Below are positions 997-48,273 of a stretch of 64,000 nt of DNA, one piece after another (positions within the stretch are counted from its first letter, which is position 1; each line of letters starts with the position of its first letter). The notes beneath the pieces were generated by a model. The model worked only from the letters and a program-made list of their open reading frames with translations. It was not told the origin of the DNA and made no database searches. The stretch is from Gammaproteobacteria bacterium (GTDB lineage: Bacteria; Pseudomonadota; Gammaproteobacteria; Francisellales; CACEW01): positions 1,104 to 65,103 of the forward strand of contig JARDZR010000006.1 of NCBI GenBank assembly GCA_029240715.1. The letters run 5' to 3'. A program made the translations under genes and the position numbers.

Positions 997-3312
997 TTAA
1001 TCCTTTCCTGGCAGCACTGTGGCAGTCTGCTCTTGGTTGTTTTGGGCGTGTTCGCCAGCATTTAATGCGGGTGCAAAAGTGATGGCAGCCATCGCTCTTT
1101 CAGCAGAGTTAAGACTTGGGCTTGCTATGATTGGGCTTGAAAGTTGCACATGCTCTGTTTCTTCCTCTAAAGCGTAAATGGCTAGATCTAGTATAATTTC
1201 CCCAATTAAAACTTTGTCTTGCTCGCTTATTGAAGATTCCTGATTAAGCAAACGCGCTATTTTTTCATTCAATGCAGAAAGGTCGCTAACCTGATCAAGG
1301 TTAATCCGACGCTTGGCAAGCAGAACAAAACAGTTTATCGCATTAGAGCGTACGGTTGGGTTTTCATGAATAAAGAGATCTGCAACACTGTCCATTAGCC
1401 CAGCGCTTTCACCGGCAAGCTTTAGGTTTTCTGCATGAGATTTAATCAATTCAAATAAGGCTGTTAAGGCATTACCTTGGGCTTGATAATTGGCATGGTT
1501 TTTAAGGACGGGCACTAAGGCTTTGAAAATTTTTGGGTTTTTGCCAAGAAGCTCTTGGTTTTCAGGATTGTTTTTAGCAAGCTGCGCCAGTTGGAAAGTT
1601 GCATTTCTTTGTAAATCTGCATATTCAGCATGGGTATCTGATATAGCATCCAGCAGCTTTGTTTGAACAGAAGGGTTGGCTGCAATCATAGTAAAAGTAG
1701 AAGGGTGGCCATTTGTCAGCAAAGATAAAACTCTTAAGCTGTTAATGTTTGATAGTTCCGGGCTGTTGAGGCTGTTTAAAAAATATTTAAGGTCCACTTT
1801 GGCAAGGACCGCAGCTTGTCGATCCGAATTCTCCCCGGCAACACATTCTAAAGCAAGGATCAATTGATTTTTGATTTCAGAATGAGCAGAGCTTTCTAAA
1901 ACAGCGATGACGTTATTGATAAACTCTGGGTGAGCAAGCATTCTGGCTTGATAGTCAGTGTTAAATGCGGTCAAATTTTCGATGGCTAGAGCTGTTTTGT
2001 ATAAAATTTCAAGATGATTGCTTTTAAGGGAAGTGATGAGCTGCTCAGTCAATCTAGCGTCCAAAAAATCGGTGTGCTTAAACGATAAAGCATTAATGAG
2101 TGAAAGTGCGGATAATTTTGAATGTTGTTCTTGGTTTGTATTTTCATGATTGCGTGGCCCTGAGACATGAAAGTAAAGTAAGCTATTGAGAGCCTCGACA
2201 ACAATTTGCATTTGGGTGTCGGATAATAAAAAATCAGGATCTTTGAGGGCCAATTGCTCTATAATATTGCAAGCAAAGATTTTAACGCTTATGTTGCTGC
2301 TCGCCAGCACTTCGATAATAAAATTATTCAACAGTGCATTTTTGCTAAGAACTGATATATCACCTGATGAGGTATCTGCTAAAGTTCTTAATATATATAA
2401 GGCCCGCAGAATTTGCGGTACGGCATCCGCTTCTTTGGCATAATCTTTAAGAAGTGCTGCAAGAGTCGAGATTGCCACAGGGCTTTGTGCAATTCTTGTT
2501 CTTAATAAAGCTGAATTAATTAATTCAGCCAAAATCATCAGAAAGTTGTAGTTTAGCTTTGGGTCCTTGTATTTAAATGCTTCAAAAATCTCAAGAACAG
2601 GCATGTTAATAAAAAGGCTTGCAGCATGAGGAGTTAATTTATTTAACATAAACAAAATTTCATTCACATGAGCTTGTATTTTTTTTGGTTTTTCTATGCT
2701 GGGATCTGCTTTTAAAAGTAAGCAGGCATTTTTAAGCAAGTCTGGATGGGCCAAAACAATTTTTTGACTATCTGGTAGCATCAATAAATTATTTAAAAGA
2801 ACGAGTGCATTGGCTTTTGCTTCAAATGAAGCAAGGGCATCACTCATGATTCCCGCGAGTATATCAAACACATTTAGCCCATTAACCTTGGTGCTTACAG
2901 CTATTTTTGAATTTGCTTCATGCGCCCTAATTAGTTGGAGTAAACCTGCTACAAGGCCAGAAAATGCTGGATGAGTTTTTAGCTTGGCTAGTTTTGATAT
3001 GAGGATTTGAATGATATCCGTTTTTGAGCCAACGTGATTTTGATTCAGCTTGTGGTTTTTTACTAAAATGCTGACGGCCATCGCAGCAGTAGCTATGTTC
3101 CCATTGGTTTCGTAATCGCTGGCTAAAATTGACCTCAATGCATGAAAAATCTCACGGTCACCCAATGCGCTTTGCATGCCTGGCTTTGGGATGGGAATGT
3201 CTGAAAATGGCTGGTCAGCGCATAAAAATATAATTTGATTTAATGCGGTTGATCTCAGTGCTGGATCACGGCTATGAAGCTGTGAGAGTAAGTCGTTAAT
3301 TTTTCCCTGCAT
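997..3312 (-). CDS. Armadillo/HEAT-repeat protein (eukaryote-like, candidate secreted effector)
   Basis: 771 aa from ATG 3312, with AAGGAA about 7 nt upstream; the track start at 3342 is TTG. The protein is all-helical. It has at least 6 degenerate ~40-aa repeats of the ARM pattern N/DxxxQxx(L/I)xxxPxxxxxL(V/I)xxL, e.g. NTDYQARMLAHPEFINNVIAVLES, NSDRQAAVLAKVDLKYFLNSLNS, NPENQELLGKNPKIFKALVPVLKN. No enzymatic motif was seen. Confidence 0.6.
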   Translation of the reverse strand: MQGKINDLLSQLHSRDPALRSTALNQIIFLCADQPFSDIPIPKPGMQSALGDREIFHALRSILASDYETNGNIATAAMAVSILVKNHKLNQNHVGSKTDIIQILISKLAKLKTHPAFSGLVAGLLQLIRAHEANSKIAVSTKVNGLNVFDILAGIMSDALASFEAKANALVLLNNLLMLPDSQKIVLAHPDLLKNACLLLKADPSIEKPKKIQAHVNEILFMLNKLTPHAASLFINMPVLEIFEAFKYKDPKLNYNFLMILAELINSALLRTRIAQSPVAISTLAALLKDYAKEADAVPQILRALYILRTLADTSSGDISVLSKNALLNNFIIEVLASSNISVKIFACNIIEQLALKDPDFLLSDTQMQIVVEALNSLLYFHVSGPRNHENTNQEQHSKLSALSLINALSFKHTDFLDARLTEQLITSLKSNHLEILYKTALAIENLTAFNTDYQARMLAHPEFINNVIAVLESSAHSEIKNQLILALECVAGENSDRQAAVLAKVDLKYFLNSLNSPELSNINSLRVLSLLTNGHPSTFTMIAANPSVQTKLLDAISDTHAEYADLQRNATFQLAQLAKNNPENQELLGKNPKIFKALVPVLKNHANYQAQGNALTALFELIKSHAENLKLAGESAGLMDSVADLFIHENPTVRSNAINCFVLLAKRRINLDQVSDLSALNEKIARLLNQESSISEQDKVLIGEIILDLAIYALEEETEHVQLSSPIIASPSLNSAERAMAAITFAPALNAGEHAQNNQEQTATVLPGKD

Positions 3313-3550
3313 TTTAAAATTCCTTGAGTCGTTTTTAAGCAAATATTGTTTTTTAAAACAAACTACACGCTAATCCTATCATTTTATGTGAATGGGTTTA
3401 TACATGCATATACATAGCAGTATCCATACTATTGTTGGCTTTATAGGGGCTTCAAGGAGCTAGAGAGAACTGTGTTTTTGTCTGTATGACTTGATTGCTA
3501 ATGAGCGTTGAAAGTTTGTGAAATGATTAAAACTTCTAAAGGTCTTTAAT

Positions 3551-7730: not shown

Positions 7731-9620
7731 ATGTTTACACCTAGAAATTCAGTACCTTTAAATTGGTACCCACTCTGGAAATACGTGCTAATTGTGGTGC
7801 TGATTTTTCTAGCATGTCTTTACGCATTGCCCAATATTTTTGGTGAAAGTCCGGCTGTGCAGGTCTCCCCCAAAGGCGGACAGACTGTTAGCTCCAGCAT
7901 GGTCTCTAATGTCCAGCAAATTTTAAACAGCAGCAATATTTCCTATAGGAACCTAAGCAGTAGTACCTATGATATTGAAATGATGTTTAATAACACTGAC
8001 CAGCAAATGCAAGCTCAGGATGCCTTGAAGTCAGCATTAGGCGATAACTATATTGTAGCAATCAACTTGGCGCCAAATACGCCTAAATGGTTGATGAATC
8101 TAGGCGCTTATCCTATGAAGTTAGGCTTGGATTTGCGCGGCGGTATGTACTTTTTGCTTGATGTTGATATGCAGGTTGTCATCGATAATAAGCTGCAAAA
8201 TACAAGTGATCAGTTAGCCCAAGATTTAAGAACCCAAGATATTCGTTATACTGGAATTAATTTAATACCCAATCAAGGGATTCAAATTCAGTTCCGTGAC
8301 CCGGCAGTCATGAGCACTGCACAAAGTTATATTGCTTCACACTATTCAATGTTGGCTGTTTCAAAGTATCCTGGTCAGCCGTTAAATTTATTGCTTAACT
8401 TTAATCAGGCGGCTTTAACCCAAATTCAAGACTATGCTGTTCAGCAGACCGTAGAGGTCATGAGAAATCGAGTCAATGATTTAGGGGTGGCTGAAGCCTC
8501 TGTTGCGCGTGAAGGGCCAGATAGGGTGGTGGTTGAGTTGCCTGGTGTTCAGGATGCGGCTCGAGCTAAATCTATTATCGGCGGAACAGCTACATTAAAA
8601 GTCATGTTGGTGGATGAACAAGCCAATTCACAGGCCGCAGTAAAAGGCAATGTGCCGATAGGTGATGGGCTGTATTATGATGCCAACAATAATCCTGTGG
8701 TATTGAAAAACCAAGTGGTATTAACCGGGAATTCTATTAGTGGTGCAAGCGTAGGCTATGACCCTCAAACCAGTCTTCCTGTAGTTCAGGTCAGTCTAAG
8801 CGGGCCTGAGGTGAATAATTTCAGCCAGGTGACAGGCGATAATATTGGTCATTTGCTGGCAATTGTTTTGGTTACCAATAGCTTTAATAAGCAAATGCTT
8901 AATGGCAAAGAAGTAACTAATACTCAAACCAATCAAACCGTGGTTAATGTGGCCACCATTCAAAGCCGTTTAGGAAATAACTTCCAAATTACTGGAATTG
9001 GCAATAGCAGAGCCGCTCAAGATTTAGCTTTAACCATTAGAGCAGGTGCCTTGCCCGCTCCAGTTCAAATTGTTGAGGAAAAGCAAATTGGGCCTTCTTT
9101 AGGGGTTCAAAATATCCAAATGGGATCTATTTCAGTAGTAGTAGCCATGGCTTTGGTTATGCTGTTTGTAGCATTTTACTATCGAGTGTTTGGCTTGATT
9201 GCTGACTTAGCTCTTATTCTTAATTTAATTTTTATCGTGGCGGTAATGTCATTAATGCCAGGGGCAACTCTTTCTTTGCCAGGCATAGCAGGTATAGTGT
9301 TAAATGTCGGTATGGCAATTGATGCTAATGTGCTTATTTTCGAAAGAATTAGGGAAGAGCTTCGCGGCGGTACTCCCGTTCAGGCTGCAATTCATGCGGG
9401 TTATGAAAGGGCTTTTTCAACTATTGTCGATGCTAACGTTACCACCTTTATAGTGGCAGTCATTCTATTTGCGATTGGTACCGGGCCGGTTAAAGGTTTT
9501 GCCGTTACTCTAATGATTGGTATTATCACCTCGATGTTTACAGCCATTATGATTACTCGAGGCATTGTGAATTTAATTTATGGTAAGCGTTCTGTTAAAC
9601 GCTTATCCATTGGTATATAG
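7731..9620 (+). CDS. secD: Protein translocase subunit SecD
   Basis: Collinear with E. coli SecD over its full length: YPLWKY, MKLGLDLRGG, LRNRVN.LGVAE, VVELPG, IQSRLGN.F.ITG, RAGALPAPVQIVEE, LPGIAGIVL, DANVLIFERI.EE. Confidence 0.95.
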   Translation: MFTPRNSVPLNWYPLWKYVLIVVLIFLACLYALPNIFGESPAVQVSPKGGQTVSSSMVSNVQQILNSSNISYRNLSSSTYDIEMMFNNTDQQMQAQDALKSALGDNYIVAINLAPNTPKWLMNLGAYPMKLGLDLRGGMYFLLDVDMQVVIDNKLQNTSDQLAQDLRTQDIRYTGINLIPNQGIQIQFRDPAVMSTAQSYIASHYSMLAVSKYPGQPLNLLLNFNQAALTQIQDYAVQQTVEVMRNRVNDLGVAEASVAREGPDRVVVELPGVQDAARAKSIIGGTATLKVMLVDEQANSQAAVKGNVPIGDGLYYDANNNPVVLKNQVVLTGNSISGASVGYDPQTSLPVVQVSLSGPEVNNFSQVTGDNIGHLLAIVLVTNSFNKQMLNGKEVTNTQTNQTVVNVATIQSRLGNNFQITGIGNSRAAQDLALTIRAGALPAPVQIVEEKQIGPSLGVQNIQMGSISVVVAMALVMLFVAFYYRVFGLIADLALILNLIFIVAVMSLMPGATLSLPGIAGIVLNVGMAIDANVLIFERIREELRGGTPVQAAIHAGYERAFSTIVDANVTTFIVAVILFAIGTGPVKGFAVTLMIGIITSMFTAIMITRGIVNLIYGKRSVKRLSIGI

Positions 9621-13553: not shown

Positions 13554-14582
13554 ATGCAAGGCAAGTCGGGACTTAAAAAAATCAATCCGCAACAGCAAAA
13601 ACCTTTTATTGATATGGCTTTTCAGGACCTCAAAAAAAGCATGAACGGCGCTTATTCATTTAGTCTTATGAATAACTTTTTTAAAAAACATCAAATGCTA
13701 GTCCAAACATTTTCCCCAGAAAACCGCGCCTATTATAAACAAAAGCTAAGCGAATTTCCTAAACAGTTTGCTGCTCAAACTAGCGTAAAAAGAGATAAAG
13801 TCATAACGAATATGCAAGCGACTGTGGCTAAGGCACAAGCTCTAAACACTATGGCTCAGGCAGTCATCGCTAAAGCCCCCCAAGTGAAATCCGCTCCTGT
13901 GCAACAGTCCCTTTTTTCCAAAATAGCCAGTGCCATTAGTGAGGCAGTAAAATCGACATTCAGCGCTATTTCAAGCTTATTTAGCAAGGCTAAAGCCACA
14001 GAAAATGCAGTAAGCCCAAGTAGCTCTGTTTTAATAGGCACGGCTCCCAATATTTTAGGCCCTAAAGCCTCAGAGCAAATCGTCACCGACGGTAGCCCAG
14101 CTTCTTATGCAAAGCTTGCCATGCCAAGCGAACCCGAGTTCACTGCGTTTAGAGAGCCTGCACCTACTATGTTAGGTGAACAAGCGGCTCAAAAAATTAT
14201 GGACGAGCTTGAAGCGCTGGCTGCGCGTGACTCAGCAAGCGCTGACTTATACCAGGCTCCTGTTATGAGCCAGGTTAGGGAACCTGAGGTCCAATTAACC
14301 GATTTAAGCCCAGATCAGGCTAAGCATTTAGCTGAAGCTTTGAATGAGGCTGAGGCAACTATAAACAGGGAAGGGGTTGCTGGCAGCTTAGCGCTTGATA
14401 TCCATGAAAATTTAAATAATATGCGGACAGATACTCAGCAATTAGCCTCAGCTTTAAATAAAGGAGTAGGCATAGCAGCAGGTACATTTGCTCAAGCTTC
14501 TAAGACATTACAGGATTTAAGCACTGAGCTTGATCGATCTGGACTGTCTAAGCTCGACAAGGATGACTTTGCTCCCCGCTAA
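13554..14582 (+). CDS. Hypothetical protein, low-complexity/probably disordered (orphan)
   Basis: 342-aa ORF with AGAGAGG upstream and an AT-rich region containing two TATAAT hexamers at 13501 and 13511. Rich in A/S/Q/K, with no signal peptide, TM segment or recognisable motif. Confidence 0.5.
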   Translation: MQGKSGLKKINPQQQKPFIDMAFQDLKKSMNGAYSFSLMNNFFKKHQMLVQTFSPENRAYYKQKLSEFPKQFAAQTSVKRDKVITNMQATVAKAQALNTMAQAVIAKAPQVKSAPVQQSLFSKIASAISEAVKSTFSAISSLFSKAKATENAVSPSSSVLIGTAPNILGPKASEQIVTDGSPASYAKLAMPSEPEFTAFREPAPTMLGEQAAQKIMDELEALAARDSASADLYQAPVMSQVREPEVQLTDLSPDQAKHLAEALNEAEATINREGVAGSLALDIHENLNNMRTDTQQLASALNKGVGIAAGTFAQASKTLQDLSTELDRSGLSKLDKDDFAPR

Positions 14583-21967: not shown

Positions 21968-22834
21968 ATGCAAGGTTTTTCCATAAAAAAAGCTGTTATT
22001 GCAACAGTTGCTGCTTGTGCTGCTGTAACTAAAAGTGCTTTAGCGCAAGATTCGTTCGGTTTTGTAGGGGCAAATCATACTTATGTGAGCAGTAACGACG
22101 GAGAAGCTGTTAATCTTTTTAACGGCACAGGTCTTGTCGGGGGCAATGATACCCTCGGCTATACTCTTGGCTTTACCGCTACATTTACTGCGATTGATCC
22201 TTCTGCCGCTAATTGTAGCATGGCGGTCGGCAACCAAACATTAGTGCTGGGTTCGCATCAAGCTAACGGCACTTTACCCATCCTGAATATTACTTCCGAA
22301 GGGATGGCTAACCAAACCCTGGCTAACTTTAGCTCAATTTGTTACGGCAACGATACCTTGGCAATAAGTGTTTCCGCATTAAATGGTGAAACTTCTGCCA
22401 ATAATACTTTGCTAGCTACCCAAGATAACTATGAGACGCCTGCTCCTTCTGGAGATTGCGTGAATGGAACAGTGACAGGCGTGCCGTTAATGGAAAAGGT
22501 AACTTTAGGTAAGTCCTTTACTACTTCTGGAATAGGATTTAAAGCAACAGGTTCTGGAGATGTTACGCCGTTCTGTGACTTTTCACAGGTTTCAAAAGCA
22601 TGTCCGGACGGATGGAATGCCACAGAAAGTTTTTGTGAAGGAAAAACGGCAGCAGCTGAGCAATTACCTCAGTCATTGAATAACGTGGTGGTCGTCAATC
22701 AAAAGTTACTTGTAGGAAAATCCGGAGAGGTGAACTGTTACTTAAAACAAGAAGCTTGTCCAATATTTGGTAATTTTACCTTGGCAAAAGTTTTGGGCAT
22801 TGCTTTAGAACAGTCCCCGCAAGCAGCATTGTAA
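21968..22834 (+). CDS. Hypothetical secreted protein, Asn-x-Ser/Thr-rich, 8 Cys in the mature part
   Basis: GGGAGA SD and signal peptide MQGFSIKKAVIATVAACAAVTKSALA. 14 of 23 Asn lie in N-x-S/T, and the motif N-x-T-L recurs six times. Followed by a strong terminator. Confidence 0.6.
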   Translation: MQGFSIKKAVIATVAACAAVTKSALAQDSFGFVGANHTYVSSNDGEAVNLFNGTGLVGGNDTLGYTLGFTATFTAIDPSAANCSMAVGNQTLVLGSHQANGTLPILNITSEGMANQTLANFSSICYGNDTLAISVSALNGETSANNTLLATQDNYETPAPSGDCVNGTVTGVPLMEKVTLGKSFTTSGIGFKATGSGDVTPFCDFSQVSKACPDGWNATESFCEGKTAAAEQLPQSLNNVVVVNQKLLVGKSGEVNCYLKQEACPIFGNFTLAKVLGIALEQSPQAAL

Positions 22835-26746: not shown

Positions 26747-27358
26747 ATGAAGCCGACACTATTAGCTCTTGATAGCTCAACAGACAGTTGCACGGTGGCT
26801 TTACAGGTTAATGGAAAGTTTTATTCCGAGCATGTTGTTGAGGCCCGTCGTCATAATGAATTGTTGTTAACGATGATTGACTCAGTCATGCAGCAAGCCA
26901 GTATTCAGTTTAGCGAGTTAGATGGCATTGCATTTGGTGCAGGCCCTGGAAGCTTTGTCGGGGTGAGAATTGCCGTTGCCATCGCTCAAGGTTTGAGCTT
27001 TGCTGCAAAAAAGCCTGTCATTCGCTTATCCAGTTTACAGATTATGGCGCAAACTGCTTTAAGAGAGCAGGCTGTTAAACAAGCTCAAGTGATAGTCGAT
27101 GCCAGAATGCAGCAAGCTTATGTTGGCTTATATCAAGAAAACCAAGCTTTGATGTTGCCTATTCAGCCTGATTCCATTCAGCCAATAGATCAAATAAGCC
27201 TTATGCCTGGATTTGCAAAAATTGATGTTCTGCCAAACGCAATGGATATGCTGCCTTTGGCAGAATTTTATTATGCTAAGGGGCAAACATTAAAACCAGA
27301 GCAAGCTTTGCCCATCTATTTGGATGAAGCCAAGCAATGGAAAAAGCTGGGGGCTTAG
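26747..27358 (+). CDS. tsaB: tRNA threonylcarbamoyladenosine biosynthesis protein TsaB
   Basis: ATG 26747 lies 1 nt after the metIQ stop. Motifs LLALDSST..C.VAL, GAGPGSFVGVRIAVAIAQGL and DARM...Y. Confidence 0.85.
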   Translation: MKPTLLALDSSTDSCTVALQVNGKFYSEHVVEARRHNELLLTMIDSVMQQASIQFSELDGIAFGAGPGSFVGVRIAVAIAQGLSFAAKKPVIRLSSLQIMAQTALREQAVKQAQVIVDARMQQAYVGLYQENQALMLPIQPDSIQPIDQISLMPGFAKIDVLPNAMDMLPLAEFYYAKGQTLKPEQALPIYLDEAKQWKKLGA

Positions 27359-27778
27359 TTACTGGTTGCCGGGTTCAGGTGTAAAATGGATCCCGCCTTC
27401 AGCATCAACGTATAGTTTGCTTGTTGCTGCTGTTTCTTCTGCTCTCGCTGCCGCTGGCTCTGTAGGCACGATAGGGCTGTTGAGCATTGCGCCAAACAAA
27501 AGGCTGCTTTTGCTAATCGGGCTAAGTAATGCTTCCAAAGCTTGTCTCTCTGTTAGTTCTCGAACAAATTGAGTAACTCTGCTGTCGTTTGAAACAGAAA
27601 TAGGAAGATAGTTAATTTCTGGGGTGCGTATGACTGAAATGTTCCTGATCGATTCACTAAGATTTTTTATATGTTCATCCATTTTACAGGTATCAAATTG
27701 GACCGTTATGTTAGAGCTTAAGGCACGCACTTCCTCTGTAGCCTGAGCTTCACCTGTTTGAGCATTATTGCCATTCAT
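27359..27778 (-). CDS. Hypothetical protein (third gene of an orphan operon)
   Basis: 139-aa ORF with GGGGAA SD. Its stop codon abuts the tsaB stop with 0 nt between them. No recognisable motif. Confidence 0.5.
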   Translation of the reverse strand: MNGNNAQTGEAQATEEVRALSSNITVQFDTCKMDEHIKNLSESIRNISVIRTPEINYLPISVSNDSRVTQFVRELTERQALEALLSPISKSSLLFGAMLNSPIVPTEPAAARAEETAATSKLYVDAEGGIHFTPEPGNQ

Positions 27779-27794
27779 AGATATTCCCCGTTAA

Positions 27795-28373
27795 TTAACG
27801 ATCGTTGCCGTAAGCCTTATCTTTTCCAGTAGCGGCCTCTGTCAGTAAAGAGTGAGCAGCCTCTGAAGGCATGCCGTCACTACCTTGTCTAAATCGAATA
27901 AAAGCAGCGGCTAGTTGAGCTTGGGCTGCTTTTTCTTCTTGAGCTTGCCGTTGCGCCTCTGCTATAAGTGCCCTGGTCTTAGAGATCAAATCATGATTGT
28001 CTTGCATAATCGCTTTGAACACATCATCGGTTTGATCTGCAAATTCTTTAAAAAGCGCCCAGTGTTTTTCGCTATATAAGCTTATCAATTGCTTGTGAGC
28101 TACTTTGGCAGGGCCGCTGACTGTGCTCTCAGCGCTTAATAAAAGTTTGAGAAAATCTAAATTCTGTTCTTCGGTTAGCGTGATAAACATAACAGATTGA
28201 TCAGGATGAATGCTGTTACTGTTGCATCTTTCTACTAAGTCTTCGAGTTCTCTGATAAAGGGGTCTTTTTTGCAGCAAAGTGCTTGAGCCATTGAGCTGA
28301 ATATAGATTGATTTGCTGCATATTGAGTTAGAACTGCATCAAGGCTATCAATAGCGATTTTAATTCCTGCCAT
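27795..28373 (-). CDS. Hypothetical protein, helical/coiled-coil (second gene of an orphan operon)
   Basis: 192-aa ORF with AAGGAGAAACACC-ATG SD. The C-terminal third is Ala/Gln/Glu-rich (AEAQRQAQEEKAAQAQLAAA). No recognisable motif. Confidence 0.55.
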   Translation of the reverse strand: MAGIKIAIDSLDAVLTQYAANQSIFSSMAQALCCKKDPFIRELEDLVERCNSNSIHPDQSVMFITLTEEQNLDFLKLLLSAESTVSGPAKVAHKQLISLYSEKHWALFKEFADQTDDVFKAIMQDNHDLISKTRALIAEAQRQAQEEKAAQAQLAAAFIRFRQGSDGMPSEAAHSLLTEAATGKDKAYGNDR

Positions 28374-28463
28374 GGTGTTTCTCCTTGTTTGATAGGCACA
28401 TATTAATTTTTCTATGCAATGAATGGAAGCTTAATTAATACTTAGGAATTTTTTCATGATTGC

Positions 28464-28682
28464 TTAAAAACGGTCTGGCGCTGGGCCTTGAGGCGGGCGT
28501 GGAGGAGTGCTAACAAAAGGTGTGACCGCCGCTTTTGGCGTGGCAACTTTTAATGGCCCATCTTGCAATATGATTACATCAGGTGCCTCAGCAGGCATTT
28601 CAACTGCAACCGCTTTTGAGATTTTCAGTAAGGGTTGCCAGACGATAATCGCTGTTTGGCTTGCTGGCTTTTCAGTTGGCAT
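28464..28682 (-). CDS. Hypothetical small Pro/Ala-rich protein (first gene of an orphan operon)
   Basis: 72-aa ORF with AAGGAG 6 nt upstream of the ATG. I prefer it over the antisense 64-aa ORF, which has a GTG start and no spaced SD. Confidence 0.45.
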   Translation of the reverse strand: MPTEKPASQTAIIVWQPLLKISKAVAVEMPAEAPDVIILQDGPLKVATPKAAVTPFVSTPPRPPQGPAPDRF

Positions 28683-28774
28683 ATTGTGCTCCTTTGATTA
28701 AATCCGCTCAATCATACTGAATTTCTTGCCGGAATGTGATAGAATGCCAGCATTTTTTGCAGCTTAGGTTAAAT

Positions 28775-30517
28775 ATGGAAAATCCCAAATTATTAGAAAC
28801 TTATAAGCGTTTGCTTGGCTATATTAAGCCCATGTGGTTAGCGCTTGTTATCGCATTTGCCGGCAATACCACTTATGCAGCGGTCGATTCCTATATTACT
28901 TATTTAATTAAGCCCATCATCAATGATGGCTTTGTAGCAGGAGACCAGCATTTTTTAGCCATGCTGCCTTTTATGGTGGTGGGGCTGTTTTTGCTAAGAG
29001 GCACAGCTGGGGTAGCTTCTACTTATTTTATGGGCTATGTCAGCCGTAAAATTGTATTAACTTTTCGCCAACAAATGTTTCATAAACTAATGAAGTTGCC
29101 AGCGAGTTATTTTGATTTATCTGCTTCTGGTAAGTTGCTTTCAAAAATCACCTACAATGTCGACCAGGTGACTCAGGCTACAGGAGATACTTTAACTACC
29201 GTAGTGCGGCAAGGCTTTACTTTAATTGGTCTTATTATCGTGATGTTTGTGATCAGCTGGAAGTTGACCTTAATCACCTTTTTAATTTTGCCGGTAGTCG
29301 TTGTTTTTGTGAAATATGTCAGTAACCGATTTAGAAAACTGTCTCGTCGCATCCAAAACGGTATGGGAGACGTAGTGCATCTGGCTGAAGAAAGTGTGGT
29401 AGGTTATCGAGAAGTTAAAATTTTTGGGGCTGAGCACCAGCAAAACACGCATTTTGATAAGGCAGTGACCTATAATTTCATTCAAGAAATGAAAATGAAT
29501 TTCACCAATGCTTTAAACTCTCCGGTCATTCAATTTCTTTGCTCATTGATGTTGGCTTTAGTGATTTATCTTTCAGTGGGACGCAATGCTCATATTATTT
29601 CAGCCGGTAGCTTTATCGCTTTTTTTACAGCGATGGGTTCTGCTCTCAAGCCTGTAAGAGATTTAAGTCAGGTCAATAACAACATTTCAAGAGGGGTCAC
29701 GGCTGCTGAGAGCATTTTTGAGCTGTTAGATGAGCCCGAGGAGATCAATCAAGGCAACAAGGTACTCACTCAGGTTAAGGGTGGGCTTGAGTTTAAGCAG
29801 GTCAGCTTTAAGTACCGTCCTGAAAGCGAGTGGGCTTTAAGAAATATCAATCTTTCAATTCCAGCGGGACAAACAGTCGCATTTGTCGGCAAAAGTGGTT
29901 CAGGCAAAAGTACCTTGATGAGCTTAATCGGCCGTTTTTATCAACCAAGCGAAGGGCAAATATGCTTGGACGGAGTCAATATCCAGGAGCTTGCGCTGCC
30001 CAATTTGCGCTCTCATATTGCTTTGGTTTCGCAACATGTGACCTTGTTTGATAACAGTGTTTTTCACAATATTGCTTTTGGGATACGTAACAACGCCAGT
30101 CGTGAAGAGGTGATAGCAGCCTGTAAAGCGGCGTATGCTTGGGACTTCATTCAGGCTTTGCCTCAAGGCTTAGACACTCAGGTAGGCGAAAACGGTCTTA
30201 ATTTATCCGGTGGGCAAAGGCAAAGAGTGGCCATTGCCAGGGCCATTTTAAAAAATGCGCCTATTTTAATCTTGGATGAAGCCACCTCGGCTTTAGACAA
30301 TGAATCGGAAAGGGCCATTCAAATGGCTTTAGACACTTTAAAGAAAGGTCGTACTACTTTAATTGTGGCGCATCGCTTAAGTACTATTGAGCAGTCAGAT
30401 TTAATTGTGGTGATGGAACAAGGTCAAATTAAAGAAACCGGCACTCATATAAGCTTAATGCAAAGTCAGGGTATCTATGCCCAGCTGCATCGGGCCAATA
30501 TTAACTTTGAGGAGTAA
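28775..30517 (+). CDS. msbA: Lipid A export ATP-binding/permease protein MsbA
   Basis: Six-TM ABC exporter domain plus an NBD (GKSGSGKST, LSGGQRQRVAIARA, ILILDEATSALD, AHRLSTI). MENPKLLETYKRLLGYIKP matches the MsbA N-terminus length, so I chose ATG 28775. Confidence 0.85.
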   Translation: MENPKLLETYKRLLGYIKPMWLALVIAFAGNTTYAAVDSYITYLIKPIINDGFVAGDQHFLAMLPFMVVGLFLLRGTAGVASTYFMGYVSRKIVLTFRQQMFHKLMKLPASYFDLSASGKLLSKITYNVDQVTQATGDTLTTVVRQGFTLIGLIIVMFVISWKLTLITFLILPVVVVFVKYVSNRFRKLSRRIQNGMGDVVHLAEESVVGYREVKIFGAEHQQNTHFDKAVTYNFIQEMKMNFTNALNSPVIQFLCSLMLALVIYLSVGRNAHIISAGSFIAFFTAMGSALKPVRDLSQVNNNISRGVTAAESIFELLDEPEEINQGNKVLTQVKGGLEFKQVSFKYRPESEWALRNINLSIPAGQTVAFVGKSGSGKSTLMSLIGRFYQPSEGQICLDGVNIQELALPNLRSHIALVSQHVTLFDNSVFHNIAFGIRNNASREEVIAACKAAYAWDFIQALPQGLDTQVGENGLNLSGGQRQRVAIARAILKNAPILILDEATSALDNESERAIQMALDTLKKGRTTLIVAHRLSTIEQSDLIVVMEQGQIKETGTHISLMQSQGIYAQLHRANINFEE

Positions 30518-40851: not shown

Positions 40852-41877
40852 ATGCATATAGAGCTATTTATCCCTGATTTAGTTTTTAATAGACCAGGCC
40901 ATGCTGCTGGTCTGCATCCTTTGTTTGAGCTTGAGTTGCCCAGCCTATCTTTATTATTAGATGGAGCAGTAAAAAGCGATTCATTGATAGATGAAGAATA
41001 CTGTTTGGCAGAAAGCTGTGGACTGGACATCAATCCTCCTTATGGAATAGCTGCTTTAACGGCTGAATTAGAAGGCTTGCCAGCAAAAATAGGCTGTTGG
41101 CTTAGAGCGGACCCGGTCCGTATGCAGGTCGGGCAAGAAACAGTTTATTGTTTGGGGCAGCAAGATCTTCACATCAGCTCAGAAGAAGCTAAATCACTTA
41201 TAGATGATGTGAATACGTTATTACAGGAAGACAATTTAAACTTAATGATGGGAGATAATCCCATGCATTGGTATTTGCTTATCGAGGCAAGAGATTTTCA
41301 AACTACCGCCCTAAGCAGAGTGATCGCTAAGCCTATAAGAGATTATTTGCCACAAGGAATAGCCGGGAGACTATGGCAAAAACGTCTCACAGAGATTCAA
41401 ATGTTGCTAAAAGCCCATCCAGTTAATATAAAACGCCAAAACTTGGGTTTGGCTGCTGTAGACAGCGTATGGTTCTGGGGGGAAGGTGAATATCCTAAGT
41501 TATCTTATCAGAGAAAAGACGTACTATTTGGAGATGATAGCTTTGCCCAGGCCGTTGCATTAGCGGCTAATTTAGCTTATCGGCCGATTCCTGAAAACCT
41601 CGACGAAATTTTATCGGGCCCCTATCAAAAAATAATATTGATTGATCATAGATTAAGATGGGCTCTAGCAAAAGGCAGCTTAGAGCAATGGCAATGCCAG
41701 GTGGTCAATTTAGAGAAGAAGCTATTTTTGCCTCTATTGCTAGCTTTGAAAAATAAAAAATTAGATCGGATAATTTTCAATTTTTGCAATTCGGTTTCTT
41801 TTCACATCGCACGGTCTAGCCTCAAAAAATGGTGGCAACGTACGCAATCATTGCAGGACAGACTTTGTAAACCTTAG
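40852..41877 (+). CDS. Conserved hypothetical protein (tentatively RpfE-type / phosphoglycerate-mutase-like family)
   Basis: AAAGGAGAGGG SD. The N-terminal L.IPDL and internal VWFWGEG resemble a family annotated that way in Xanthomonas and betaproteobacteria. Assigned from memory only. Confidence 0.4.
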   Translation: MHIELFIPDLVFNRPGHAAGLHPLFELELPSLSLLLDGAVKSDSLIDEEYCLAESCGLDINPPYGIAALTAELEGLPAKIGCWLRADPVRMQVGQETVYCLGQQDLHISSEEAKSLIDDVNTLLQEDNLNLMMGDNPMHWYLLIEARDFQTTALSRVIAKPIRDYLPQGIAGRLWQKRLTEIQMLLKAHPVNIKRQNLGLAAVDSVWFWGEGEYPKLSYQRKDVLFGDDSFAQAVALAANLAYRPIPENLDEILSGPYQKIILIDHRLRWALAKGSLEQWQCQVVNLEKKLFLPLLLALKNKKLDRIIFNFCNSVSFHIARSSLKKWWQRTQSLQDRLCKP

Positions 41878-41993: not shown

Positions 41994-43529
41994 ATGTTAG
42001 GATCAGATGGCATGGGTACAGAAGTGGGAAGCAGCTTGGCAGCTCGAAGAGCCTCATCTGCAAGTTTAACAGCGGGAGCAGCTTCGGCGGGTAGCGCAGC
42101 TTCGCAGTCATTAGCTGCGACAGCCTGGTACGCTGAATATCAGGAATATTACAATGAGTTAAAGGTAGCTGTGGTTAAGCTTTGGAATGCACAGCCTGCA
42201 GTCGGTGATCCAGCTAGCTTAAGACATGTTAGAGCGAAAGGGCAAGAGAATAGCACAGTGAACCTGTTCAAAGCTCCCCACTACAAGGCAGAAGAAGCTA
42301 AAGACATTGCAGAGAAGTGGTATGGAAAAATTCCAGCGGATATGAATTTTTCTGCTGCTGCTAACACTGAGCTTAATAAAACGATTGAAGCGATAACGAA
42401 AATTTTGCGTGAATATATCACGGAGTCAAAAGGCCGTTGGTTTGTGGACCCTTTGAAAACAGCTGCTAAGTCTGAAATAGCCGAGCTGGCGATTCAATTT
42501 TTTGAAAAAATCAGAGCAGATGAAGTTAGATCTTATCAAGTGCGTGCCTATTGTGTAGAGAGAATGCTGCATGAGCTTGTAGTATTTGACTCTAAAGACG
42601 CAGGGAAAGGAAAGCATTTTCCGCAAGCTTTGCAAAAATGTCATTTAGCTTTAAATGAATATGAAAACAAGTTACTTGTTGATGCTGTTTCCCTTCCAGT
42701 TGATGCTGTTTCTCTTCCAGCGCCTTCATATGAAGCTCAATATCCAGCAGCAGCTGCGGCAGCTGTTCCTGCTCCAGCTGTTGCATCTGACGCGCCATCT
42801 CTAACTGTAGCTACGGCTGCTGCTCCAGTTTCTGCTGCCGCAACAACAGGAAGTGCTGCCGATACAGCCGCAGTATCTCCTGGGAAAAAGCGTCGTGCTC
42901 AATGGCTTTCGCTGTTTGGCGGTGGCGCTGCTGCTCCAGCTCCAGCAGAAGCTGCTGTCGGCGCTGCAGAAGCGCTTGATACTAGATGGTCTCCATCGTT
43001 TGGCGCTGCTGTTGGCGCAGCTGCTCCAGCATCTGCTTCAGCTGGAAGCACAGACAGCACTGTAGTGGCTGACAAAACTCGAACTTCTTCTATAGCGGAT
43101 GCTACTGTTGCAGCCAATGCAGCTGCAGCTGCCGTCGCTGCTCTTTCTGCTAGCATAGGACAGCCAGATCAAGTAGCTGTAGCAATCCCTGTTGGTGCAA
43201 GTGAAAGCAAGTCTCAGGAAGCGGCTCCTGCTATCGTTGCTGCCCCTGCTGCAGAAGCTCATGCAGCTGCTCCTGCTCCAGGGCTGGTTGCTCAAATAGC
43301 AGGAAAAGCCCAAGATTTAGTAAGGACTTTGTCTGCTTTGAGTGGTTCAAGCCATGGCCGTGCAAGTGCGGGCAGCGTTGAAGAAGCTGGTGTTGCTCAG
43401 GGTCAAGCGGCCGAAGGGCTTGTTTTGCCAGATGTGGCACCAGTTCAAGGTGCATTTGCAGCTGTCGCCCGGCGCTCGCCTGTCGCAGCTGAAAGTGAAG
43501 CTTCAAGTACCGCAGAAGCGGGACAGTAA
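41994..43529 (+). CDS. Hypothetical protein: helical N-domain plus long Ala/Ser/Pro/Val-rich low-complexity C-half (candidate effector)
   Basis: AGGAGG SD, 511 aa. Residues from about 230 to 511 are Ala-rich low complexity (about 40 percent Ala by eye) and include the tandem VDAVSLP-VDAVSLP. Followed by its own terminator. Confidence 0.6.
   Translation: MLGSDGMGTEVGSSLAARRASSASLTAGAASAGSAASQSLAATAWYAEYQEYYNELKVAVVKLWNAQPAVGDPASLRHVRAKGQENSTVNLFKAPHYKAEEAKDIAEKWYGKIPADMNFSAAANTELNKTIEAITKILREYITESKGRWFVDPLKTAAKSEIAELAIQFFEKIRADEVRSYQVRAYCVERMLHELVVFDSKDAGKGKHFPQALQKCHLALNEYENKLLVDAVSLPVDAVSLPAPSYEAQYPAAAAAAVPAPAVASDAPSLTVATAAAPVSAAATTGSAADTAAVSPGKKRRAQWLSLFGGGAAAPAPAEAAVGAAEALDTRWSPSFGAAVGAAAPASASAGSTDSTVVADKTRTSSIADATVAANAAAAAVAALSASIGQPDQVAVAIPVGASESKSQEAAPAIVAAPAAEAHAAAPAPGLVAQIAGKAQDLVRTLSALSGSSHGRASAGSVEEAGVAQGQAAEGLVLPDVAPVQGAFAAVARRSPVAAESEASSTAEAGQ
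42678..42719 (+). repeat. Perfectly adjacent 21-bp tandem duplication inside the CDS (2 copies, 1 mismatch)
   Basis: gttgatgctgtttcccttcca (42678-42698) is followed by gttgatgctgtttctcttcca (42699-42719), encoding VDAVSLP twice. Confidence 0.9.
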
Positions 43530-43645: not shown

Positions 43646-45259
43646 ATGTACGGAGATCATGATTCGATTTCGACAACGGTAGAAAAATTTGTCGCGGCCC
43701 CTGGGCTTAACGAAAGAATAGCGGCATTTTATAATTCTTTGCCTCAAGAAGTCCGTGATCAACTTGAGGCTACTACCATAGATATAATCTTTTCACAGGC
43801 GTCCTCTGAGTTTGAACAAAAATACCAGCCTGCACTGCAAGAATCTGTTGGCTTTGATTATGGGGTCGCTATTTTTGCAAGCTATGAAAAAACAATTTCT
43901 CAGTTAAAAGATGAATTGTCTCGACTGATTAAACTGGGGCTAGAGGATGAGGTTGGCAAAGAGTTTGCCAAGAAACTTGAACAGGACCATCAGGAAAAGA
44001 AAGCAATAATCAGTGAACTTTATATGGTTATTCCCATAAAACAAAAATGGGTCAAAATAGAGGCTGAATTGCTAGAAGCTGAGCAACAATTTAATGCAGC
44101 CATAGCGCCTTTAAAGCTAAAGTTAGACACCGAATTTATTATGCCTGCAAAAGAGGCTATGGATGATAAAGCCGCAGCTGAAGCAGCCTTTGGGGTTTAT
44201 GAAACAAGGCTTGCTAAGTTGTTTACATTTTTAAGCACAATAAGAACCCAAATAAAAAGCTGTGTTGAAGAAAGGCTTGTCAAGCAGCATGCCAATATAG
44301 AGTTTCTGAAAGCTATCTATAAATGCAGCGCTGAAAAAAAGCGCAGCCTACACCAAATTATTCATGCAAGTAAAATGGCTGTGTTAGACCTACAAGTTAA
44401 GTTCCTGGCAACTGCCAATGAAGGAGAAGAAGCCACTAAGCTTCAAAAAATAATGGAGGCTTTTGCAGCGGAAGGGACTGTCGATACTTGGAATAAAGAG
44501 TATTGTGAAGAGCGCGATAAAATTACAGAAGCCTATAAATGTCATGAAGTATTTGTCAAAATCCTTAGGGCTGATAAATCTTTTTTGCGTACAGTTGATG
44601 CTGCTAATTTTATGGCATATGTTCAAGCTAATAATACCGACTTAAAAGAATTCAACCAAGCTATGACAAGGGCTGATTTGAAATTTAAAGCCGTGGTACA
44701 AGACTATATCAACAAGCGTCAACCTAGCATATTAAAAGGCATGGTCCAATTTAATGTAACGGCAGAAGAAAAAATTAAATGGGCTAGAGTATTATTAACT
44801 TTCCTAGAACGTTTGCCAGAACGCCCATGGCTGCCCATTCAAAAGTTCTGGGCATTGTCGCAGTTAATTCATCAGCTTGAAAAGGCCAATCAAACTAAAT
44901 CCTTGTTAGCAGATCCTGGCACCCATTTCCCCAAATTAATGGCAGCCTGTAAGCTAATTTTGCTTGAACTAAAAGAGGCTTTGCCTGAGATTGTGTCGGC
45001 GCCTGAATCGCAATTTACAGTAGGCATTATGAGTACTGTAGCATTATATAGGCCAAGGTCTGGAACAGGCAGTACGACTGCAACCAGCTATACAGCTGAT
45101 GTCGCTAGCCCAGTCGGAGATAGCTTTCGCAGCTCAAGTTCACGCTTATCTGGAATCGCGGGGTCTTTTTTTAGGAAAGGGGGAGGCGCTGCCGCGTCTA
45201 GCCCAGCTGCCTCTGCTAACGGCGGAGCAGGAGGGGACGGCTTTGGCAATGTGTGTTAA
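43646..45259 (+). CDS. Hypothetical protein, all-alpha/coiled-coil with Ser/Gly/Ala-rich tail (candidate effector)
   Basis: 537-aa ORF with long helical heptad-like stretches. The last roughly 75 residues are S/T/G/A-rich and end GGAGGDGFGNVC. No recognisable motif. Confidence 0.55.
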   Translation: MYGDHDSISTTVEKFVAAPGLNERIAAFYNSLPQEVRDQLEATTIDIIFSQASSEFEQKYQPALQESVGFDYGVAIFASYEKTISQLKDELSRLIKLGLEDEVGKEFAKKLEQDHQEKKAIISELYMVIPIKQKWVKIEAELLEAEQQFNAAIAPLKLKLDTEFIMPAKEAMDDKAAAEAAFGVYETRLAKLFTFLSTIRTQIKSCVEERLVKQHANIEFLKAIYKCSAEKKRSLHQIIHASKMAVLDLQVKFLATANEGEEATKLQKIMEAFAAEGTVDTWNKEYCEERDKITEAYKCHEVFVKILRADKSFLRTVDAANFMAYVQANNTDLKEFNQAMTRADLKFKAVVQDYINKRQPSILKGMVQFNVTAEEKIKWARVLLTFLERLPERPWLPIQKFWALSQLIHQLEKANQTKSLLADPGTHFPKLMAACKLILLELKEALPEIVSAPESQFTVGIMSTVALYRPRSGTGSTTATSYTADVASPVGDSFRSSSSRLSGIAGSFFRKGGGAAASSPAASANGGAGGDGFGNVC

Positions 45260-47196: not shown

Positions 47197-48273
47197 ATGG
47201 TGAAGTTACGGCTCATTATAAAAACAATAGTATTGAGTTGCTTGCTGTTAGCTTTTAATCATAGCTGGGCAATGCAAAGCTATGGCCCCACTAAAGCCAA
47301 TGAAACTTTGTGGTCAATTGCTAGCCGGCATCATCCGGCTAAAGTCACAGTAGAGCAAACTGCTTTAGCAATCGTAAAGCTTAACCCTAAATCTTTCCAG
47401 GGCTCAGATTATGTTTTGCGCCTGCATTCTTACTTAAGGCTGCCTACTACTGCTTCTGAAGTTAAATCTGTTTTAGGCTTGACTGCTGTGAGTACAGCCA
47501 ATAGTAAAGCCAAGGCTTCAAGCAAGCTAAACAAGCCAGTAGTTAAGTCGGCGCGCACTGTTTCAAGCGCTAAGTCAGTCCATCCACATAAACTACCTAG
47601 CGCAGATCACCGCGCTGTTTCGCCGCAGCCAATGCCTCCTCAACAAGCTTATCTCTCTCAGATAGCGGAACTTAATCAACAACTGACTGCAGCCAATCAG
47701 CAGATTGCTTCTCTTCAGCAGCAATTATCAGATAGCAACAGTAATGTTAATGGTTTTCCTTGGGCAAGCCTTTGGTTTATTTTATGGGCTTTAACCAGCG
47801 TTTCTTTATATATGGTCTATCGTCGTTATAAATCTGCTGAAACAGTAGAAACGGAAGACGATGCAAACTTAAAAGCTCAATTAAAAGAAGCTCGAGGCAA
47901 AACTGAGCCTATTATTATTTCAGTATCGGAAAAAGAGCCCGAAAACCCATTCCAGCAAGGTGAGCTTGATATTCCTGCAAATGAAATTGGCTTGAATGAA
48001 CAAAGCTTGGCAGAAACTACCGACAATGAAACAGAGCAGGCAGAAGACATGCCGGCCACCCCCGAAATTCAAGCTCTGTTGCAGCAAATAGAAACGGATC
48101 CTTACAACTTAGAATTGCGCATGGAGCTGTTAGAGCTTTATGCTAATGCTTCTGATCAAGCGGGTTTTAACCAACAGTCACGAGAGATGTTAAATCACAA
48201 TCTAATGATGGAAGGTGATGAGGTTTGGTCTAAAGTGAGGGCTTTATATCTTAATACCTGGGTCTATGCCTAG
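47197..48273 (+). CDS. Short FimV/HubP-family protein (LysM-like N-domain, TM, FimV C-terminal motif)
   Basis: Signal/TM segment, then YGPTKANETLWSIASRHHPAKVTVEQTALAIVKLNPKSF (the FimV N-terminal LysM-like signature). A Q-rich coiled coil follows, then a TM segment (WASLWFILWALTSVSLYMVY), an acidic region and the C-terminal DPYNLELRMELLELY motif. Confidence 0.6.
   Translation: MVKLRLIIKTIVLSCLLLAFNHSWAMQSYGPTKANETLWSIASRHHPAKVTVEQTALAIVKLNPKSFQGSDYVLRLHSYLRLPTTASEVKSVLGLTAVSTANSKAKASSKLNKPVVKSARTVSSAKSVHPHKLPSADHRAVSPQPMPPQQAYLSQIAELNQQLTAANQQIASLQQQLSDSNSNVNGFPWASLWFILWALTSVSLYMVYRRYKSAETVETEDDANLKAQLKEARGKTEPIIISVSEKEPENPFQQGELDIPANEIGLNEQSLAETTDNETEQAEDMPATPEIQALLQQIETDPYNLELRMELLELYANASDQAGFNQQSREMLNHNLMMEGDEVWSKVRALYLNTWVYA

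Follow-up and report, generated by a model that had tools for sequence, protein, structure and literature searches.

A candidate clade-restricted, variable islet of small genes between tsaB and msbA in uncultured soil Gammaproteobacteria

The Dot/Icm effectors of the Legionellales and Coxiellales are lineage-specific, fast-evolving proteins that are translocated. Their C-terminal signal is a Glu-rich block that lies in a small, polar tail, ~10–17 residues before the C-terminus, and the PmrA-type upstream element consists of tandem TTAAT-containing repeats. Here we describe an islet of three small open reading frames (ORFs) between tsaB and msbA in a 64,000-nt stretch of gammaproteobacterial DNA (contig JARDZR010000006.1 of assembly GCA_029240715.1), hereafter referred to as the window. 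The islet resembles Dot/Icm effectors in several respects. Its products have no homologues beyond a narrow clade and no Sec signal; they are small to mid-sized, partly disordered and of low complexity; they show duplication, loss and rapid divergence; and their genes lie among housekeeping genes, with native codon usage and with eukaryote-like repeat proteins nearby (one ARM-repeat ORF and one ORF judged ankyrin-like by eye). Unlike these effectors, the islet proteins have no clear C-terminal Glu-block, no PmrA- or CpxR-type element could be demonstrated, and no secretion system was seen within the 64-kb window. The explanation that we consider best, a native clade-specific variable islet with effector-like products, has in our estimate a probability of about 0.5.

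The islet is bounded by two conserved genes, identified by matches to TIGR03725 (TsaB; 158.7 bits, cutoff 69.3) and TIGR02203 (MsbA; 727.9 bits, cutoff 602). The locus comprises the following features, in window coordinates:

26747–27358, plus strand: tsaB, the convergent flank and a fixed islet boundary (TIGR03725 match).
27359–27778, minus strand: type C gene, encoding a 139-residue acidic, Ser/Ala/Glu-rich protein that starts with MNG.
27371–27448, minus strand: C-terminal module of ~26 residues in the 139-residue protein, ARAEETAATSKLYVDAEGGIHFTPEP, with the pattern h-Y-x-D-x-x-G-x-[IL]-H...P.
27795–28373, minus strand: type B gene, encoding a 192-residue all-helical protein with a long Gln/Ala/Glu-rich helix and a Cys-Cys pair.
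28400–28445, minus strand: type B upstream element, CTAAGTATTAATTA (28432–28445), with a −10-like TAATAT (28405–28400), in the 90-nt spacer.
28464–28682, minus strand: type A, a 72-residue Pro/Ala-rich ORF that starts with MPTEK, the first gene past the divergent promoter region.
28711–28745, both strands: block of 35–45 nt in the divergent region, conserved in five loci.
28775–30517, plus strand: msbA, the divergent flank and a fixed islet boundary (TIGR02203 equivalog match).

We recomputed the layout reported in an earlier description of this DNA, the sequence-only reading, and obtained the same result. Three minus-strand ORFs of 72, 192 and 139 codons lie between tsaB and msbA, separated by spacers of 90 and 16 nt, and each is preceded by a Shine–Dalgarno motif (AAGGAG at 28694–28689, AAGGAGA and GGGGAA, respectively) 5–6 nt ahead of the ATG. 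The divergent region measures 53 nt to a GTG at 28736, or 92 nt to the ATG at 28775, depending on which start msbA uses. At the other end, the stop codon of the 139-residue gene (27359–27361) abuts that of tsaB (27356–27358) with zero spacer. The compositions given for the three proteins also agree with ours, and the 192-residue protein contains the AEAQRQAQEEKAAQAQLAAA stretch and a Cys-Cys pair at residues 33–34 (nt 28272–28277). None of the three has a transmembrane segment or signal sequence, with a maximum Kyte–Doolittle 19-residue mean of ≤1.21.

We searched for relatives using the 192-residue protein and TsaB. With the former as the query, an exhaustive HMMER (phmmer) scan over 1.84 billion cluster representatives gave two matches only, the query itself and P0003, a protein of 167 residues with 34% identity (E = 5.6e-11). 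The P0003 gene lies divergently beside msbA–coaX at a contig end of another metagenome-assembled genome (MAG; locus L021). From 5.8 billion proteins, a word-indexed search retrieved nothing but the queries themselves or members of these loci, a first scan of a genome collection with the 192-residue protein gave no match, and the 72-residue ORF had no database match besides itself. Within the 64-kb window, no islet paralogue was found elsewhere. With TsaB as the query in genome and metagenome collections, we obtained four syntenic loci: L001 in the soil MAG JAQSYQ01, which was traced to a sorghum-exudate soil microcosm study, L002 in JAUSAW01, L013 on a 129-kb metagenome contig (Ga0208514_100058) and L019 on a 1-kb contig. 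Locus L022 was added through a profile search. Minus-strand small ORFs adjoin tsaB in all four TsaB-anchored loci, and L001, L002 and L013 contain the complete metI/Q–tsaB–gap–msbA–coaX backbone. The window locus itself is carried by two Joint Genome Institute metagenome contigs (samples 3300042923 and 3300045996) at 100% and 99.86% identity; the three differences in the latter are one intergenic, one synonymous and one F74L change, the last two in the 192-residue gene. From these searches, the islet appears to be restricted to a small clade of related uncultured soil Gammaproteobacteria, as the sequence-only reading had proposed in calling it lineage-specific. Its further description of the genes as orphans was nearly right, since they belong to no known family, but relatives do exist, within the small clade only. 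Conservation of the neighbourhood, which it had suggested examining, is likewise partial: the tsaB–msbA site is the same in the relatives, but its content differs.

The small ORFs of these loci can be assigned to three groups. Type A (68–104 residues, Pro-rich, most starting with MP[EDTS]K) includes the 72-residue ORF of the window (W72), L001-78, L002-68, L002-104, L019-79 and P0007; the MP[EDTS]K start is common to W72 and the type A ORFs of L001, L002 and L019. Type B (167–192 residues, helical, with a Cys-Cys pair) includes the 192-residue protein (W192), L019-176, P0003 and a partial copy in L022. Type C (110–182 residues, starting with MN and mostly with MNG) includes the 139-residue protein (W139), L001-132, L002-182, L013-110 and the C-terminal part of one L022 ORF. 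Within type B, W192 and L019-176 are 30% identical (BLASTP, E = 8e-12). The residues that are invariant among the three full-length members include Y18, N21, Q30, C33 and C34, and the L022 fragment, which reads FCSQK, has a single Cys. Pairwise similarity of islet ORFs was determined by Smith–Waterman alignment calibrated by shuffling. W139 is related to L002-182 (z = 5.4, p ~0.0015) and L001-132 (z = 4.3, p ~0.0035), while L019-79 matches L002-68 (z = 8.0), L002-182 (z = 6.8) and L001-78 (z = 3.7); W72 and L001-78 gave p ~0.03.

Islet proteins of different types also share C-terminal tails, which read ...PEPGNQ, ...APGNQ, ...SPANQ or ...TPGQ directly before the stop codon (window 27359–27373; L022:261–275 and 532–546; L001:8613–8627). 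These tails are present whether or not the gene adjoins tsaB. We looked for conserved DNA just past the tsaB stop as the cause of the ...PGNQ C-termini and found none.

The three groups are arranged differently in each locus. In the direction of transcription, the order is A-B-C in the window, C-A-B in L022, ?-A-B in L019, C-A in L001 and A-C-(tsaB fragment)-A′ in L002; L013 has a single ORF, and in L021 a type B gene directly follows the msbA-side intergenic region. The tsaB–msbA gap holds one to three or more small genes across the six related loci. Three complete gaps (L001, L002 and L013) lack type B but retain other small ORFs. Because type B is missing where other types persist, no obligatory partnership is conserved. 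The sequence-only reading had proposed a single coherent three-gene operon or module, possibly an effector with a chaperone or adaptor, or a system of the toxin–antitoxin kind. Neither proposal is supported at a locus whose subsets, order and copy number vary among relatives and whose type B gene is lacking in three of them.

The arrangements A-B-C and C-A-B are circular permutations of one another, as would be expected if duplication had been followed by losses at different ends. Inside its islet, L002 has a second copy of the last 146 nt of tsaB as a direct repeat (8987–9132, a copy of 8457–8602; 81% identity), situated 530 nt past the real one. This repeat is the relic of a ~530-bp tandem duplication; the small-ORF DNA adjoining it has diverged past nucleotide recognition. 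The tsaB copy has kept an open frame (ORF 8855..9133, with ...GEVKRRKKLAT at its end), whose stop overlaps the following small gene in just the way that the stop of the real tsaB does. We propose that tandem duplication, divergence and loss have reshuffled the gene groups among genomes. In structural and evolutionary terms, the islet is very probably a clade-restricted, quickly diversifying variable array at a fixed tsaB–msbA site. Small hypervariable orphan islets are a familiar kind of locus; what is new here is the islet protein families, which have no membership in any known family.

Flanking proteins are 65–88% identical between genomes (TsaB 65–69%, MsbA 81–86%), whereas islet proteins are at most 34% identical, and on these values the islet proteins evolve far faster than the flanks. 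In the comparison of L019 with L022, the ratio of nonsynonymous to synonymous substitution rates (dN/dS) was 0.20 in type A and 0.33 in type B; for the type B genes of the window and L019 it was 0.37, with dS near saturation. Where measurable, these ratios indicate purifying selection on types A and B. They bear on the alternative that survives best, in which the islet consists of young or nearly neutral filler genes that arise and decay in an expandable gap, under weak constraint and with no specific role. Such genes would account for a sequence turnover that is extreme relative to the flanks, for the low complexity of the proteins and the low predicted local distance difference test (pLDDT) scores of their models, for the L013 ORF unrelated to the others, and for a content that ranges from one to three or more genes per locus. 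Neutral filler would not be expected to show dN/dS values of 0.20–0.37, to keep the Cys-Cys pair and other residues across type B proteins of ~30% identity, to carry a conserved B-specific cis-element or to have coding scores within the range of known genes. We consider this alternative unlikely.

The cis-element lies in the spacer upstream of the 192-residue gene and consists of CT[AT]AG-N-ATTAATTA, then an A-tract and finally a −10 box. Its alignment across four loci has 35 invariant columns, whereas the proteins encoded there are merely 30–46% identical. The element is unique in the window. In the fetched loci it accompanies type B genes exclusively, lying directly ahead of the gene in each case. 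It is probably a promoter or operator of the 192-residue gene itself, which weakens the view of the islet as a single operon. The single transcript assumed in the sequence-only reading is likewise disfavoured, as the element and its −10 box travel with the gene in four loci.

These observations also bear on a fixed three-component module, read from one transcript, in which the 192-residue protein would act as a chaperone, adaptor or antitoxin for its small partners. Like the islet, type II toxin–antitoxin and effector–chaperone pairs consist of small neighbouring genes that share a strand and are separated by short spacers. The islet genes are indeed tightly packed on one strand, with Shine–Dalgarno motifs and only 16 nt between the 192- and 139-residue genes, and types A and B are paired in L019 and L022 as well. 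Unlike in such systems, however, the pairing is not conserved and the supposed partner, type B, is often absent: A and C persist without it in L001, L002 and L013, the L021 type B gene stands beside msbA with no type A upstream, gene order varies among loci, and type B has an upstream element of its own. Searches of Pfam, NCBIfam and PADLOC with the three proteins and their relatives returned no toxin, antitoxin (DNA-binding) or chaperone family. We therefore rejected a type II toxin–antitoxin system, for which a conserved cognate pair is absent, and a secretion chaperone or adaptor (type III secretion system (T3SS) class I or IcmS/IcmW-like) for the 192-residue protein, for which there is neither a family match nor conserved co-occurrence with a cargo. 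In our view a fixed module is highly unlikely.

The second conserved element is the block in the divergent region. Its minus strand reads ATCACA-18 nt-TATGAT (promoter-scan match 28740..28711(−)), with TATAAT in the relatives, and its plus-strand complement, TGATAGAAT, is an extended −10 suitably placed for msbA. The block is kept in the window, L001, L002, L013 and L021, regardless of which small gene follows. It may represent back-to-back divergent promoters for the small genes and msbA, although the msbA promoter alone could explain its conservation. In the array that we propose, transcription of the islet would start from this block, back to back with the msbA promoter, and a second, B-specific promoter or operator would act ahead of the 192-residue gene. 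The predicted minus-strand start sites would lie close to 28704 and 28393, and transcripts would run on into tsaB in antisense. At the opposite end, the last small gene abuts the tsaB stop in the window and L001 (0 nt) and overlaps it by 4 nt in L002 and 11 nt in L013, leaving no room for a terminator between these convergent genes in the four loci. Scans of the locus with Rfam and a tandem-repeat finder (TRF) gave no match.

Such intimate contacts with the neighbours might suggest that the small proteins are accessory or regulatory factors coupled, through the shared promoter or the 3′ overlap, to lipid A export by MsbA or to the synthesis of t6A (threonylcarbamoyladenosine) by TsaB. The same two genes flank the islet in every relative, the conserved 35–45-nt block is able to serve both promoters, and the tsaB stop is in every case adjoined or overlapped by the last small gene. 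Specific binding is nonetheless hard to reconcile with small proteins that change in family, number and sequence beside a conserved MsbA and TsaB, no small protein has a transmembrane segment that would place it beside MsbA in the membrane, and the msbA promoter suffices to explain the block. We give this coupling very little credence.

We scored coding potential with a codon-frequency model trained on 37 identified genes of the window and compared all six frames. The annotated frame was the best of six for all three ORFs, with scores of 0.176 (72-residue), 0.232 (192-residue) and 0.229 (139-residue) bits per codon; known window genes give 0.300 ± 0.063 and range down to 0.138. GC content at third codon positions is 0.34–0.38 in the three ORFs and 0.38 in the genome, and the GC content of the islet is the same as that of its flanks. 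Because of this agreement, we take the islet genes to be native and not recent imports, and a foreign origin was ruled out. For the 192- and 139-residue proteins, relatives could be detected at this locus in other genomes. The 72-residue ORF has the weakest support of the three: it scores lowest for coding potential and is no more than weakly similar to a single relative. Taken together, the codon statistics and homologies indicate that all three are genuine protein-coding genes of native origin. Spurious ORFs in a non-coding spacer, which the sequence-only reading had named as a way in which it could fail, might explain the lack of family matches and the low score (0.176) and weak similarities of the 72-residue ORF, but are barely credible given the best-of-six frames, type B homologues at E = 8e-12 and 5.6e-11, dN/dS below 0.4 and type C relatives at p ~0.002–0.004, and for the 192- and 139-residue genes this explanation is largely refuted.

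Types A and C are linked by a hairpin-like module of ~25 residues, roughly h-[FY]-A-x-E-x-T-x-D-h-Y-x-D-x-x-G-x-[LI]-H-x-x-P. It occurs in one or two copies per protein, and two type C members have a C-terminal copy. Within the window, the module is found solely at the C-terminus of W139; the corresponding regular expression otherwise matches three ORFs of the L002 gap. In leave-one-locus-out hidden Markov models, the omitted copies of L002 and of L019/L022 were the best non-training matches (E = 0.004–0.008). The hairpin core of Rhs/YD, CW_binding_1 and tectonin-like (BP39L) repeats resembles the h-Y-x-D-x-x-G-x-h of the module. Unlike a member of these families, the module gives no significant profile match, and one or two copies per protein would not suffice to build a propeller, solenoid or Rhs shell. 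We rejected an Rhs/YD or choline-binding repeat after a Pfam search with six concatenated modules (E ≤ 10) returned neither an RHS nor a CW_binding match. Membership of the tectonin-like propeller lectins requires 5–7 blades plus a significant profile match, and the module has neither: the best PDB profile match was BP39L (6gxr; E = 0.072) over the region TDVFAADSDGVLH, and single stretches were not significant.

No significant match came from searches of Pfam, NCBIfam, PADLOC and PHROGs with the three proteins and ten of their relatives. Sequence and profile searches of the PDB with the B family and the hairpin module, which follow a suggestion of the sequence-only reading, were equally empty. 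Two of its statements, that the proteins show no recognisable motif or family and that their function cannot be read from the sequence, are borne out, with no match to a known family in Pfam, NCBIfam, PADLOC, PHROGs or PDB sequences. The best Pfam match, to the ElaD/SseL C-terminal domain (PF22102), was found in the 192-residue protein only and lies below the gathering threshold (17 bits against a cutoff of 27, E = 0.0053). It was not reproduced in the homologues P0003 and L019-176, and we rejected it. AlphaFold2 predicted the 192-residue protein to be all-helical (pLDDT 44.6) and the 139-residue protein (pLDDT 41.3) to contain short strands at residues 122–124 and 130–132, at low confidence.

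What the islet products do is the more tentative half of the explanation that we favour. They would be small, partly disordered proteins made in the cytoplasm without Sec signals, and may be secreted or translocated by a host-associated bacterium to interact with its host, with the hairpin-like module and the Pro-rich tails serving as short interaction motifs. An effector-like host-interaction function is possible but, in our judgement, falls clearly short of even odds. We favour it because the distribution is narrow and the genes diverge rapidly, duplicate and are lost; because Sec signals are absent; because the sequences are of low complexity, Pro-rich and acidic, with short conserved motifs; and because the genomic company fits. 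This company comprises an ARM-repeat ORF, ORFs without Pfam matches and an ankyrin-like ORF, and eukaryote-like repeat proteins are typical of host-associated bacteria. The first is a 781-residue ORF of the window (997–3342, minus strand), whose sole Pfam match is PF25598, a plant U-box ARM-repeat region (E = 3e-9; 37.1 bits, cutoff 33), and which has no NCBIfam match. Six plus-strand ORFs of 288–537 residues (13554–14582, 21968–22834, 40852–41877, 41994–43529, 43646–45259 and 47197–48273) are without Pfam matches at thresholds of E ≤ 1e-6 or 1e-8. Their coding scores of 0.18–0.31 bits per codon are like those of real genes, and they may be further lineage-specific proteins in an otherwise housekeeping region. 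The third is a 469-residue ORF of L001 (11856–13265, minus strand), directly after coaX, judged ankyrin-repeat-like by eye.

Several observations weigh against this explanation. No dot/icm, T3SS or type VI secretion system gene is present among the ~40 ORFs scanned in the window. The C-termini are polar and Pro-rich, with no Glu-rich signal of the Dot/Icm type that is clear by eye: the 139-residue protein carries E at position −13 and D at position −15, and the tails of the 192- and 72-residue proteins lack a clear E-block. The PmrA-like pattern TTAAT-N6-TTAAT shows no enrichment in the window, where it occurs 15 times and 17 matches would be expected. The type B element contains ATTAATTA, but its second half-site is poor in the window copy, and the identification of that element as a PmrA box is not substantiated. 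Both AlphaFold2 models are of low confidence and provide no evidence of a fold. The link of W72 to its family is weak (z = 2.4), and L013-110 has no relation to any other islet ORF that Smith–Waterman alignment could demonstrate. When the window copy of the module was left out, it was recovered at E = 1.1 only (rank 2/1702 segments), which makes module membership of the 139-residue protein suggestive, not strong. Finally, the host-associated lifestyle of these soil MAGs is itself a presumption.

A bolder version would treat the locus as an accordion, in which tandem duplication anchored at the tsaB 3′ end continually generates, permutes and discards small proteins built on a hitherto undescribed hairpin module, together with a new Cys-Cys helical protein. 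The products would then constitute a new family of host-targeting proteins, secreted or translocated and subject to diversifying selection, with the islet as a contingency-type effector nursery at a fixed core-genome address; we regard this as speculative and distinctly improbable. Should the effector-like function prove true, the islet would add new protein families and a new short interaction module to the host-manipulating repertoire of uncultured soil bacteria, which are probably protist-associated. It would also show, in a compact natural setting, how genes turn over at one fixed site of a core genome by duplication, permutation and loss, with cis-elements kept while the coding sequence races. 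If that function is wrong, the islet is one more small lineage-specific hypothetical cluster, and its value is limited to better annotation, as real genes that are not a toxin–antitoxin or defence system.

The backbone around the islet contains a second variable spot, since the window has tolC in the position of the 469-residue ORF of L001. Three further genes of the window were noted. A minus-strand gene at 53890–55191 encodes a protein of the microtubule-associated tyrosine carboxypeptidase family (MATCAP; PF08014, E = 5e-126), a family name of eukaryotic flavour within a bacterial genome. At 50697–52928, on the same strand, lies the gene for a 743-residue protein with a ParA/MinD-like AAA_31 domain. 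The plus-strand gene at 56609–57502 encodes a tyrosine recombinase of the XerC/XerD type, with a Phage_integrase domain and an N-terminal SAM-like domain.

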